DNA of 38,702 nt from the IMG/VR virus record IMGVR_UViG_2974499565_000001, positions 1 to 38,702 of that record; one strand, 5' to 3'. Below are positions 10,064-15,552 of the stretch, piece after piece. A model generated the notes under the pieces. It worked only from the letters and a program-made list of their open reading frames with translations, searched no databases and had not been told where the DNA came from. The stretch is from a virus (taxonomy: Duplodnaviria; Heunggongvirae; Uroviricota; Caudoviricetes; Demerecviridae). A program made the position numbers and the translations under genes. The stretch's first letter is position 1. Each line of letters starts with the position of its first letter.

Positions 10064-10960
10064 ATGTACTACTCTCTAATGCGAGAGTCAAAAGTTGTAG
10101 TTGAGTATGATGGCAGAGCGTATCACTTTGACGCTCTGTCAAACTATGACATCAATACCTCCTACGAGGAATTTAAAACTCTTCGTAGGACTATTCATCG
10201 TAGAACCAACTATGCTGACTCTGTTATTAACGCACAAACTCCATCATCAATATCGCTGGCTATAAATTTTAGTAATACCCTTACTGAGGCTAACTTCTTC
10301 GAATGGATGGGCTTTGATAGAGAGGGTACTACCTTCCTGCTACCACTTTATAGCACGAATATTGAACCAACGATGTTTAATATATACATAGTTAATAAAG
10401 ACAATAACTGTGTATATTTTGAAAACTGTTTTGTATCTAACGTTGACTTCTCTCTTGATAAAAACGTTCCAGTACTGAATGTTGGTATTGAGTCTGGTAA
10501 GTTTTCCGAGGTATCTACGTACCCTCCTGCTGGTATTGTTCAGGGCGAGGTTATGTCTTACAGTCCTCCTAGAGTAACTACAAACAGTAATATTTTACCC
10601 GCTCTTTTATCCGCTTCTATGTCCTTCCAACAGCAATGCTCTTGGAGAGAAGATAAAAGTGTATTTGACATAAACAAAATATATAATAATAAAAGAGCTT
10701 ATGTTAACGAGATGAATGCTTCGGCAACAATTGCGTTTTACTACACTAAGCGATTTGCTGGTGATATGTTCTACAATATTGAACCCGAAACTGATATCCC
10801 TTTAACTATCCGAAATGAACATATTTCGATTGATTTCCCTTCAGCACGTATAACAAAACGCCTACAATTCTCGGATCTATACAGGATTGAGTGGGATGTA
10901 ATTCCTACTGCTGATTCTGATCCGGTAAGAATCGACTTCTTTGGAGAAATAAAGAAATGA
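10064..10960 (+). CDS. p140: Baseplate tube / minor tail protein
   Basis: 298 aa directly after pb6. T5 synteny and recalled similarity. Confidence 0.85.
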   Translation: MYYSLMRESKVVVEYDGRAYHFDALSNYDINTSYEEFKTLRRTIHRRTNYADSVINAQTPSSISLAINFSNTLTEANFFEWMGFDREGTTFLLPLYSTNIEPTMFNIYIVNKDNNCVYFENCFVSNVDFSLDKNVPVLNVGIESGKFSEVSTYPPAGIVQGEVMSYSPPRVTTNSNILPALLSASMSFQQQCSWREDKSVFDINKIYNNKRAYVNEMNASATIAFYYTKRFAGDMFYNIEPETDIPLTIRNEHISIDFPSARITKRLQFSDLYRIEWDVIPTADSDPVRIDFFGEIKK

Positions 10961-11361
10961 TTAACTTAAAAGATATTACCCTAGATACTCGCTCTGTTAC
11001 GCTTTCCTACCCTGGTATGCCTAACTTTAAGCTTGAATTGAACTACATGTCTCGTGCCACTTCTAAGCGTGTTATTGCTTCTGCAAAACGTGACGAATGG
11101 GTTAACGGTACACTGTTACAGGTTCAGGATGATGACAAGTTCATTGAAGCTTTCGTTGATTCTGCTATCAAAGGTTGGACTGGTCTGACTATTGGTGATG
11201 TTGAGAAGCTGATGCTGATTGAAACTGAAGCTGATCCATCTACTGAAGTTCCTTTTAGCCGCGATAACGCTGTAATGCTAATGCAGAACTCTGCTGCGTT
11301 TGATTCCTGGATCAACCAGACAGTGTTCCACTTAGACACTTTTCGTAGCCCAAAAGCGTAA
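10957..11361 (+). CDS. p139: Tail assembly chaperone (gpG-like)
   Basis: 134 aa, first of two ORFs before the tape measure gene. GGAG RBS. Confidence 0.8.
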   Translation: MINLKDITLDTRSVTLSYPGMPNFKLELNYMSRATSKRVIASAKRDEWVNGTLLQVQDDDKFIEAFVDSAIKGWTGLTIGDVEKLMLIETEADPSTEVPFSRDNAVMLMQNSAAFDSWINQTVFHLDTFRSPKA

Positions 11362-11422
11362 ACAACTTCTAGATGCCGTTGCCAAATTCGCAGATAAATG
11401 CGTTAAGTCTTCGGCATCTAAA

Positions 11423-11791
11423 ATGACTAAAGAACAATACTTAATAATGTGCGAGTCAATGGGTATCGAACCAGATCCTGATGTGATGCCTGTTGAACTA
11501 GAAGATTTTCCACCTATTGTATCTACTAGTAAGCAAATCTATAACAGTCTCATTGATTGTTTCATACCGGGTGACTTTCCTATCTTTATAGGTAAAGATA
11601 AAAGTGCATTAGGTGTTTTATTTGATATCTATGGGATTACTGATCCGATAGAGAAAGAGTTCGTTCTACACATAATCAATATATTTGATTCGAAAGCAGT
11701 AGACGCAGCTCGTAAGAGAGCCGAGAAACATGGGAAACCAAATGGTCGCACTCCGAACATTAAACCTCATGGAAGATCTCGAGCTCAGTAA
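11423..11791 (+). CDS. p138: Tail assembly chaperone C-terminal ORF (gpT-like), probably translated as a frameshift fusion to p139
   Basis: 122 aa from the ATG. The frame stays open upstream to 11336, and there is no SD before the ATG. Confidence 0.75.
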   Translation: MTKEQYLIMCESMGIEPDPDVMPVELEDFPPIVSTSKQIYNSLIDCFIPGDFPIFIGKDKSALGVLFDIYGITDPIEKEFVLHIINIFDSKAVDAARKRAEKHGKPNGRTPNIKPHGRSRAQ

Positions 11792-11826: not shown

Positions 11827-11857
11827 GGCTCTGGGTGATTTGCCCAGAGCCTTTTTT
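11827..11857 (+). terminator. Intrinsic terminator between chaperone genes and tape measure gene
   Basis: GGCTCTGGG / CCCAGAGCC 9-bp stem followed by T6. Confidence 0.88.
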
Positions 11858-11874
11858 ATTGGGAAAAATAAATG
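11850..11874 (+). repeat. 25-nt exact repeat, copy 2
   Basis: Identical to 6833-6857. Ends in the pb2 ATG. Confidence 0.9.
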
Positions 11875-14800
11875 ACTGATAAGCTAATACGAGAACTACT
11901 GATAGACGTAAAGCAGAAAGGAGCAACCCGTACTGCAAAATCTATTGAAAGTGTTTCTGATGCGTTAGAAAATGCTGCTGCCGCTTCTGAACTGACTAAT
12001 GAACAGTTAGGAAAGATGCCCAAAACTCTATATTCCATTGAGAGGGCGGCGGATAGAGCAGCTAAGAGTCTAACAAAGATTCAGGCTTCTAGAGGTATGA
12101 CAGGTATTTCTCAATCTATTGATAAGATGATTACATCTCTTGATAGATTAGAAACTGCAATTCTCCAAGTTAGCCAAGACTTAAACCAAGGATTTGCCGA
12201 TGTAGGTAAATCAGTTAATAGAATGGGTAACGATGTAGTTGCTGCAACTGAAAGGGTTCAGGATAGATTACACGATACCAATACTACTATTAGAAATACT
12301 GGTAAAGCTTTTAATGATACTAGTACAGCAGCGGGGAGAGCTAGCCGAGCAATAGGTAATACTTCGGGTTCCGCTCGTGGTGCAACTCGTGACTTCGCAG
12401 CTATGGCTAAAGTAGGTGGTAGTTTACCTCTAATGTACGCTGCAATTGCATCTAACGTATTCGTTCTGCAATCTGCATTTGAACAGCTGAAGATGGGTGA
12501 TCAGTTAAACCGCCTAGAGAAGTTTGGTACTATCGTGGGTACTCAGACAGGTACTCCGGTACAAACTCTAGCTAGGTCGCTACAGGAAGCTGCTGGTTAT
12601 GCAATTTCTTTTGAAGAAGCAATGAGACAAGCATCCTCTGCTTCTGCATACGGTTTTGATGCTGAACAACTTAATAAATTCGGTCTAGTAGCTCGTCGTG
12701 CTGCTGCTGTTCTTGGTGTAGATATGACTGACGCACTTAACCGTGTAATCAAAGGTGTATCTAAACAAGAAATCGAACTTCTGGATGAACTTGGTGTTAC
12801 TATTCGTCTTAATGACGCATTCTCTGACTATGTTAAACAGCTTAATGCTGCTAACACAGGTATTACTTATAATATCAATAGTCTATCCACCTTCCAGAAA
12901 CAACAGGCGTACGCTAACGCAGTAATCGCAGAATCTACTAAACGTTTCGGATATCTGGATGAAGTATTACGTGCAACTCCGTGGGAACAGTTCGCTGCTA
13001 ACGCTGATGCTGCATTACGTAAAATTCAACAAGCTGCTGCTAAGTATCTTGGTCCAGTTATTGACTCTATTAACGCAGTATTCTATACATCTCAAGCTTC
13101 TATTTCTGCAACTGCTGCTAGAGCACAGGAACAGACTAACCGAGCTATTGATCCTAGTAACGTTGGTGCTGTGGCTCTTGGACTTGAGGCATCAGAAGCT
13201 GGGTATAATAAAGCTCTTGATATGTATAAAGAATCTCTAGAAAAGCGTAATAAGTTAAAAGCTGATCTAGATAAGCGCATGCAACAGGCTGACTTCTTTA
13301 CTGCTGGTGCAATTCGTTCTGTAGCCCAGGGTGTTCCTGTAAGTGCAGCAGCACTTGGTGCTTCTGAAGAAAATAAGAAGTTCGTAGCTGATACTGCTGC
13401 AATGGCACTACAGGTAGAGCGTCTTGATAAGGAAGTTGCTGACTCTACTGAAAATTTAGGAGCCTGGAAATCTGCATACCAAGCTGCTGGGGCAGCTGCT
13501 GCTAAGGCAAACCCTGAATTCCAGAAACAGATAAATCTACAGAAGGATGCAAACGATCCTGATGCAGTTTATGACTTTAACTCTGCAACCCTAAAAGGGT
13601 TGACAGAACAGCAGAAAGCGTATGACCAGACTAAGAAAACTGCTAGTGACTTAGCAAACGATATTCAGAACATTGCACAGAATACTAACACTGCTGCTAA
13701 AACAAGTGCATCGTTAGCTGATACAATTAAGACTATCGAATCACTGTCTGCTGGTACTGGTAAAAATGCTGATGAGTATGTTAAGAGCTTGAACTTAGGT
13801 TATAATACTCTAAGTGAAATGAAAACTGCTTCTCAAGCACTTGCTGGTTATGTAAAACTGACGGGTAATGAAACAAAGAATCAGTTAGCTGTTCAACAGA
13901 AGATTGCCGAAGTGTACAACCAGACTAAGGATAAAGAAAAAGCACAGGAAGCTGGTAGACGTCTGGAAGTTCAACAGTTAGAAGAACAGGAAGCAGCCCT
14001 TAAGCGGGTACTGGAAACTAACAAGGGTAACAAGGCAATTGAAAGTGAGATTGCTAAGATACAGCTAGAAAGGATCAAGATCACTAACCAGAACATGGAA
14101 GCTCAGAAGAAGGTTAAGGATTACACGGATAAGATCCTTGGTGTTGATCGTGAGATTGCTCTGCTTAACAACCGTACTATGACAGATACTCAGTATAAGT
14201 TAGCTCAGTTGAACCTTGAACTGACTATCGAGAAAGAGAAATATGCATGGTACTCTAAGCAGGTCGACAAGCAAAAAGATGCAGAACAATCAAGACGTGC
14301 TCAGGCACAGATTGAGCGTGAAATCTGGAAGTTCCGTCAGGACCAGCAAATGGAAATGGCTAGTGGGCGCGAGAGAGCTTTAGGGTTATCTCAAACCGAA
14401 CGTAACGTTACTGGTGAATCTCAGCGTTTAACTGAACAGCAAGCTCTATACCAAAGTCTATTGGAGATTACAAAAGGAAACGCACAAGCTCAGGAAGAGT
14501 ATAAGCGTAAAATCCAAGAAACTTCGGCAGCTCTAGCACAGCTTAAGATGCAACGTGATGCTCAAATGCAGCAAGCTGTTACTTCTTCTGTTGGTGGTAC
14601 TTACACACCTACTACTGGGCTAGAAGGTGATGATAAAGCCAATATGGATATGCAGAATAGAATGGCATCTTATGACCAGGCTATCTCTAAATTATCTGAA
14701 CTAAACTCTGAAGCAACTGCAGTAGCACAAAGTATGGGTAACCTAACTAATGCTATGATTCAGTTCTCCCAGGGGTCACTGGATACTACGTCTTTAGTAG

Positions 14801-15552
14801 CTGCTGGTATGCAAACTGTATCTTCAATGATTCAGTACAGTGTTGGCCAACAGGTAAGTGCTATTGATCAGGCTATTGCAGCAGAGCAGAAGCGTGATGG
14901 TAAATCAGAAGCATCCAAAGCGAAGATCAAGAAGTTAGAAGCTGAAAAGCTTAAGATCCAGCAAGATGCGGCTAAGAAGCAAATTATCATCCAAACAGCG
15001 GTTGCAGTTATGCAAGCAGCTACTGCAGTACCATATCCATTCTCAATTCCGTTAATGGTTGCGGCTGGATTAGCGGGTGCTATGGCATTAGCTCAGGCAT
15101 CTTCTGCATCTGGTATATCTAATATTGGAGACTCTGGTGGTGATACTGCTAGCTACTTAACACTTGGAGAGCGCCAGAAGAACGTCGACGTTTCTATGTC
15201 GGCTAATGCTGGGGAACTTTCTTATATGCGTGGTGATCAAGGTATTGGTAACGCTAACACCTTTGTTCCGCGTGCGGAAGGTGGTAATATGTATCCAGGC
15301 GTTAGTTACCAGATGGGTGAACATGGTACCGAGGTAGTTACTCCTATGGTTCCTATGAAGGCCACTCCAGCTGATGAGGTTAAAGGCTCATCTAGAGGCA
15401 CATCGGGTAGACCTATTGTGCTGAACATCAGTACGATGGATGCGGCGAGCTTCCGAGATTTTGCTTCGAGCAACAGCGCTGCTTTCAGGGATGCCGTGGA
15501 ACAGGCTCTTAATGAGAATGGAACCACCCTGAAATCACTTGGTAATTCTTAA
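11872..15552 (+). CDS. pb2: Tape measure protein
   Basis: 1226 aa, Ala/Gln-rich coiled coil with hydrophobic segments near both ends. MTDKLIRELLIDVKQKGATRTAKSI matches T5 pb2. Confidence 0.96.
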   Translation: MTDKLIRELLIDVKQKGATRTAKSIESVSDALENAAAASELTNEQLGKMPKTLYSIERAADRAAKSLTKIQASRGMTGISQSIDKMITSLDRLETAILQVSQDLNQGFADVGKSVNRMGNDVVAATERVQDRLHDTNTTIRNTGKAFNDTSTAAGRASRAIGNTSGSARGATRDFAAMAKVGGSLPLMYAAIASNVFVLQSAFEQLKMGDQLNRLEKFGTIVGTQTGTPVQTLARSLQEAAGYAISFEEAMRQASSASAYGFDAEQLNKFGLVARRAAAVLGVDMTDALNRVIKGVSKQEIELLDELGVTIRLNDAFSDYVKQLNAANTGITYNINSLSTFQKQQAYANAVIAESTKRFGYLDEVLRATPWEQFAANADAALRKIQQAAAKYLGPVIDSINAVFYTSQASISATAARAQEQTNRAIDPSNVGAVALGLEASEAGYNKALDMYKESLEKRNKLKADLDKRMQQADFFTAGAIRSVAQGVPVSAAALGASEENKKFVADTAAMALQVERLDKEVADSTENLGAWKSAYQAAGAAAAKANPEFQKQINLQKDANDPDAVYDFNSATLKGLTEQQKAYDQTKKTASDLANDIQNIAQNTNTAAKTSASLADTIKTIESLSAGTGKNADEYVKSLNLGYNTLSEMKTASQALAGYVKLTGNETKNQLAVQQKIAEVYNQTKDKEKAQEAGRRLEVQQLEEQEAALKRVLETNKGNKAIESEIAKIQLERIKITNQNMEAQKKVKDYTDKILGVDREIALLNNRTMTDTQYKLAQLNLELTIEKEKYAWYSKQVDKQKDAEQSRRAQAQIEREIWKFRQDQQMEMASGRERALGLSQTERNVTGESQRLTEQQALYQSLLEITKGNAQAQEEYKRKIQETSAALAQLKMQRDAQMQQAVTSSVGGTYTPTTGLEGDDKANMDMQNRMASYDQAISKLSELNSEATAVAQSMGNLTNAMIQFSQGSLDTTSLVAAGMQTVSSMIQYSVGQQVSAIDQAIAAEQKRDGKSEASKAKIKKLEAEKLKIQQDAAKKQIIIQTAVAVMQAATAVPYPFSIPLMVAAGLAGAMALAQASSASGISNIGDSGGDTASYLTLGERQKNVDVSMSANAGELSYMRGDQGIGNANTFVPRAEGGNMYPGVSYQMGEHGTEVVTPMVPMKATPADEVKGSSRGTSGRPIVLNISTMDAASFRDFASSNSAAFRDAVEQALNENGTTLKSLGNS

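Follow-up and report, generated by a model that had tools for sequence, protein, structure and literature searches.

The window, which is the whole 38,702-nt stretch of DNA that was analysed, makes up 38.7 kb at the start of a T5-like genome of 112.6 kb, in which 27 tRNAs were called. Salmonella phages RN29 and STWB21 are 93–94% identical to this genome across most of the tail region. The locus described here lies in the tail operon, between the baseplate tube protein gene p140 (10064..10960; PHROG 3889, E 5e-156) and the tape measure protein gene (11872..15552; 1226 aa), to which TMP_N/TMP_C genes correspond in position and size in relatives; all features are on the plus strand. As in the G/GT layout, two ORFs stand immediately 5' of the tape measure gene. 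The first is a homologue of T5 p139 (10957..11361; 134 aa, 15.1 kDa), a short tail assembly chaperone that we call G, and the second is the annotated p138 ORF (11423..11791), which makes up the remainder of the T part and is followed by an intrinsic terminator (11827..11851). A 25-nt stretch ahead of the tape measure start (11850–11874) recurs approximately 5 kb upstream in the contig of a close relative. In Salmonella phage GSW6 (OQ362005, positions 1–805 of locus L339), p140 and G are annotated as a single in-frame CDS of 1299 nt, which is either a genuine fusion or an artefact of assembly. A 41-kb record labelled as a Corynebacterium phage (PQ773600), with 94% identity to the window, is probably a T5-like fragment carrying the wrong host label.

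The frame of p138 is +1 relative to that of p139 and extends well upstream of its annotated start. Whereas G runs from 10957 to the stop codon TAA at 11359–11361, the p138 frame is open over 151 codons, from 11336 to 11791, and a TAG in that frame (11333..11335) marks the 5' limit of an overlap of 26 nt. The first ATG, GTG, or TTG in the p138 frame is ATG 11423, 87 nt in. The overlap region contains ACT_TTT_CGT at 11338–11346 and AAA_G at 11353–11356. The original prediction was that a +1 ribosomal frameshift at one of these two sites joins the two products, and its coordinates for the TAG, the open frame, the ATG, and both candidate sites were all correct on re-reading. At the first site, TTT_CGT (11341..11346), the proposed shift would move Phe129 from TTT to TTC (11342–11344) and resume reading at GTA 11345, which gives a predicted fusion of 277 aa and 31.1 kDa with the junction ..HLDTF-VAQKR... 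TTTCG occurs 56 times in the window when 63 occurrences are expected, so the motif in one genome proves nothing. The site exceeds chance only through its conservation and because it goes against the codon-pair bias of the genome.

The two ORFs match successive segments of a single 258-position chaperone profile, PHROG 313, with p139 covering positions 12–139 (E 5e-33) and p138 covering positions 174–255; p138 also matches PHROG 3914. In the AF2 model of G (pLDDT 93.8), the best structural match was the HK97 tail assembly chaperone 2OB9 (Z 4.9, rmsd 5.8, 95 aligned), at a score below the level of a clear match. No match was obtained for G in a Pfam search, or for either G or T with Foldseek. 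A search for naturally fused, longer proteins found none, and it must be considered weak because a joined protein does exist in GenBank, as described below.

For the comparison across relatives, we sampled named phages of Escherichia, Salmonella, Klebsiella, Serratia, Pectobacterium, Erwinia, Yersinia, Proteus, Vibrio, and Aeromonas, together with about 240 uncultivated contigs found by degenerate DNA patterns in which the codon before the Phe was fixed to AAY, and TTY and the next codon were left free. Klebsiella phage vB_Kpn_3 (L093), in which this region contains many breaks, and a locus with a break inside G (L082) were left out. Among the 316 loci with both parts, T was in the +1 frame in 125, in the −1 frame in 191, and in frame with G in none. 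All 125 of the +1 loci had TTT, and never TTC, at the same Phe, and the codon that followed was CGN in 124/125 and CAA in 1/125, while AGA and AGG did not occur. After clustering at 70%, CG followed the Phe in 31/32 of the +1 clusters vs. 1/29 of the −1 clusters. In the columns used for comparison, other conserved Phe residues were encoded by TTT in 54–78% and other Arg residues by a mixture of CGN and AGR, and only 7/54 Phe-Arg pairs in the long flanking ORFs of the sampled loci were TTT_CGN. In 36/56 clusters, the start of the open +1 frame lies 5 nt upstream of the Phe codon. My1 and Vibrio phage 70E34 have a 14-nt overlap, in which the G stop comes directly after TTT_CGT, and any shift must therefore be confined to the Phe and Arg codons and the two codons before them. 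TTT_CGT and a +1 T frame also occur together in another locus, L067. The sole +1 locus without TTT_CGN, L111, has TTT_CAA at the end of G, which suggests that TTT_C is the minimal core.

Phe129 is invariant throughout the protein family, and in the −1 members with the heptamer G_GGA_AAC, this Phe is TTT in 49/52, although these slip one codon earlier and do not need TTT; for this reason, the number of TTT codons, taken by itself, is weaker evidence than it seems. The second and third bases of CGT also begin the Val codon of the +1 frame, so protein constraint may account for part of the CG conservation, and CG may have been kept either as a signal or as a consequence of that Val codon. Because the loci share ancestry, p-values calculated from these counts overstate the evidence, and we gave more weight to internal controls.

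The codon usage of the window genome was also analyzed. TTT was followed by C in 42 of 532 cases and TTC in 142 of 546, and for both pyrimidines the corresponding values across the whole genome were 82/532 vs. 277/546; TTT_CGT was found twice and TTC_CGT 18 times. This avoidance of TTT before C or T is expected if UUU_Y is error-prone. Furthermore, in-frame TTT_CGN occurs five times in the genome, and only at the chaperone site does a long +1 frame follow (148 codons vs. 4–20 at the others). Over the 20 codons of G that precede the site (11281–11340), synonymous divergence among close relatives is low (pS 0.13 vs. 0.38), and no shared structure or SD explained this.

The relatives with T in the −1 frame provided a positive control, in that a canonical heptamer was found in 128/128 of the −1 clusters (A_AAT_TTT in 70, G_GGA_AAC in 52, A_AAA_AAC in 4, and A_AAT_TTC in 2). 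The heptamer A_AAT_TTT ends on the same Phe codon as the +1 site, and in an alignment of the predicted +1 and −1 fusions, the junction is free of gaps. The mean z of the downstream structure was −1.0 in the +1 loci vs. −2.3 in the −1 relatives.

Between the site and the annotated p138 ORF lies an unannotated coding linker of 26 codons in the +1 frame (11345..11422), which is predicted to form the helix that opens the T part (helix 2–20, confident at pLDDT 87–89 in the model of T). The original prediction anticipated codon-level conservation here in the p138 frame and no stops in relatives, and both were found. In the 61 nt from the G stop to ATG 11423, pN/pS in the T frame was 0.11 vs. 0.06 in the T body among 35 distinct close relatives; 17 of the 24 variable sites were at third positions; and stops were present in 0/35 relatives in the T frame and in 35/35 in each of the other frames. 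In the wider set, 56/56 of the +1 clusters had no stop in the +1 frame within the 66 nt past the site, whereas the other two frames contained stops there in 51 and 55 clusters. These nominally intergenic 61 nt are under purifying selection as coding sequence.

Selection upstream of ATG 11423 is difficult to reconcile with p138 as an independent gene, translated from that ATG or by re-initiation after the G stop, with no fusion made or needed. Two separate genes are annotated in nearly all the records inspected, and the announcement of phage Sugarland, with reference to Zivanovic 2014, reports the absence of a predicted frameshift signal in this phage, as in T5 (PMC6256483). At the column of ATG 11423, ATG is present in 20/32 clusters, but the remaining 12 have ATA, ATT, GTT, GTA, TTT, TTC, or CTA, and 3/32 have no ATG, GTG, or TTG anywhere up to 40 nt beyond this column. 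The original prediction saw no SD ahead of this ATG, and the calculated duplex agrees (−1.7 kcal/mol vs. −6.4 kcal/mol for the p139 start). In addition, a 9-bp stem (11370..11420, pairing 11370–11378 with 11412–11420; z −2.9) lies over the would-be RBS region. Two of its pairs are changed on both sides among 14 close relatives, it is kept in close relatives only, with no shared structure across the wider enteric set, and, closing just ahead of the ATG, it may keep this codon unused. The second ORF is without a conserved start or SD of its own, and ATG 11423 is probably an internal Met. Because an independent p138 would also leave the invariant TTT_C and the heptamers of the −1 relatives unexplained, we consider it very unlikely.

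A real fusion could also arise by a −2 shift, as in phage Mu, or by a short hop, since +1 and −2 reach the same frame (PMC3498833). The triplet two bases back is variable (ACT, ATT, CTT, CCT, GGT, CAT, or CGT) and tRNA-Phe cannot re-pair with it, whereas the TTC reached by a +1 slip is fully cognate and does not vary, and it is the +1 reading that gives the gap-free junction; a −2 mechanism is thus highly improbable. A still smaller probability attaches to a shift at Lys AAA_G (11353–11356), which the original prediction had named as a second site. AAA_G is present in the window and in close relatives, where re-pairing from AAA to AAG is possible, and it may make a minor local contribution. 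Over the family, however, a Lys re-pairing site falls within the overlap in only 14/32 clusters, and My1 and Vibrio phage 70E34 leave no room for one after TTT_CGT. Of the two motifs for which invariance had been proposed, TTT_C is invariant in the +1 loci and AAA_G is not conserved. Fusion by a +1 shift at the Phe site, the other part of the original prediction, fits the stop-free frame, the selection on the linker, and the invariant TTT_C, which all agree. Slippage of RNA polymerase on the T run, with loss of one base in some transcripts, can practically be dismissed, because the run, four T in the window (11340–11343), is 3 in 38/56 clusters and 4 in 18/56, far shorter than the usual slippage tracts, and the conserved feature is an in-frame codon context. 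In the RNA data, which consist of assembled contigs only and in which rare slippage would escape detection, the contig of one relative spans the site with no indel.

The best reading of the locus is a programmed +1 frameshift, in which the P-site tRNA-Phe slips from UUU to UUC and a 277-aa, 31-kDa G-T fusion is made; we give it a probability of about 0.88. Most ribosomes would terminate at TAA 11359, and the short chaperone G would be their product. At Phe129, tRNA-Phe (GAA) would occasionally re-pair from UUU to UUC, and reading would resume at GTA 11345. From the sequence comparisons, we infer the slip itself, its direction at the peptide level, and an efficiency of a few per cent. By analogy with lambda gpG/gpGT, G would coat the tape measure protein, and G-T, as the scarcer form, would link it to the tail tube subunit. 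A P-site slip from UUU to UUC is the model favoured for influenza PA-X (PMC3498833), and UUU_Ynn is reported to promote +1 shifts in bacteria particularly readily, with no need for a neighbouring stop (PMC5009743). The site seems to act as a bare, intrinsically leaky UUU_C context; neither an upstream SD nor an RNA structure common to the family was found in the +1 loci. CGU, at 20.2 per 1000, is not rare in E. coli (PMC3498833), and it is the main Arg codon of the phage, with 601 uses and a phage tRNA-Arg (ACG) of its own, so a hungry codon is unlikely as the trigger. As lambda needs G and G-T at approximately 30:1 (PMC5009743), a low intrinsic shift rate may suffice.

The lambda gpG/gpGT system and the G-T frameshift conserved among long-tailed phages have been summarised previously (PMC5009743). 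The feature described here would work like lambda G/GT and fits its layout: two ORFs overlap ahead of the tape measure gene, there is a short chaperone with a predicted rarer, extended form, and a resemblance in profile and possibly in fold, and members of the same family carry canonical −1 heptamers. However, the site is not a lambda-type −1 site. A tandem-slippage site in the window was rejected because T is in the +1 frame and an X_XXY_YYZ heptamer is found only in the −1 relatives; the site is instead UUU_CGN, and the downstream structure is weaker than in those relatives. A Mu-type −2 site was rejected on the variable −2 triplet already described; gpGT of Mu resembles the predicted product as a G-T fusion that reaches the +1 frame, but Mu shifts by −2 (PMC3498833). 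A prfB-type +1 site was also rejected, as most +1 clusters have no SD-like pairing and the A-site codon is CGN.

The +1 site of influenza A PA-X is UCC_UUU_CGU (PMC3498833), and the site in the window shares with it the core UUU_CGU and the proposed P-site slip from UUU to UUC, together with an in-frame UUU followed by C, an open +1 frame, and CGN in the A site. Unlike PA-X, the ribosome is bacterial, CGU is common in the host rather than rare, and the E-site codon is ACT in the window and one of eight codons, with TCC in 2/21, among 21 unbiased clusters. Bacterial UUU_Ynn sites, namely the argI error and Yersinia YopN-TyeA (PMC5009743), belong to the same tetranucleotide class and need no adjacent stop or SD, but the present site differs from them in showing conservation throughout a phage family and selection that runs counter to the TTT_Y avoidance of the genome. 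The tail chaperone of the archaeal HSTV-2, for which a +1 shift is probable (PMC5009743), would likewise connect G and T via the +1 frame.

Among the T5-like records that were opened, only that of Shivani (KP143763) joins G and T, as a single two-piece CDS (CPT_Shivani132, AJA73579.1), and the Shivani paper does not mention a frameshift (PMC4342426). Full-text literature searches, among the papers that they covered, found no description of a T5 +1 site or of a UUU_CGN site in a phage. The G/GT system is textbook knowledge and the fusion is already joined in the Shivani record. If the reading is true, T5 leaves the list of long-tailed phages thought to be without a chaperone frameshift, and the annotation would be corrected in a family of about 900 sequenced records. 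The locus would also allow a question raised by the PA-X paper (PMC3498833), what makes UUU_CGN shifty when CGU is not a rare codon, to be studied in a naturally occurring bacterial system.

The relationship between shift direction and phylogeny was analyzed in an unrooted tree of 61 fusions, in which the +1 label needs two changes. The +1 locus L250 is sister to the −1 locus L240 with a support of 100/100, inside a −1 clade, and a single clade of all the +1 rows was rejected (p-AU 0.0003). L250 and L273, which come from different metagenomes, have no heptamer, and in both, two extra bases turn TTT_CAG into TTT_CGT. A second gain of +1 in L250 is the simplest reading in this unrooted tree. On balance, we somewhat favour the broader proposal that T5-like phages use the PA-X core UUU_CGN as a +1 site that functions by itself on bacterial ribosomes, needing no rare codon, SD, or structure, and that the family has flipped between a −1 heptamer and +1 at the same Phe at least twice, once via a gain of two bases, a situation that would be undescribed in print. 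The −1/+1 sister pair provides a ready comparison, in which the direction is probably free and only the ratio of G to G-T matters.

Finally, in Aeromonas phage AhSzq-1 (NC_047949; L037), a record that is unannotated here, many TAG codons interrupt the frames of p140, G, T, and the tape measure gene under table 11. Amber reassignment has been reported in the genus of this phage. When TAG is read as Gln, all four frames are open, and TTT_CGA with T in the +1 frame is kept.
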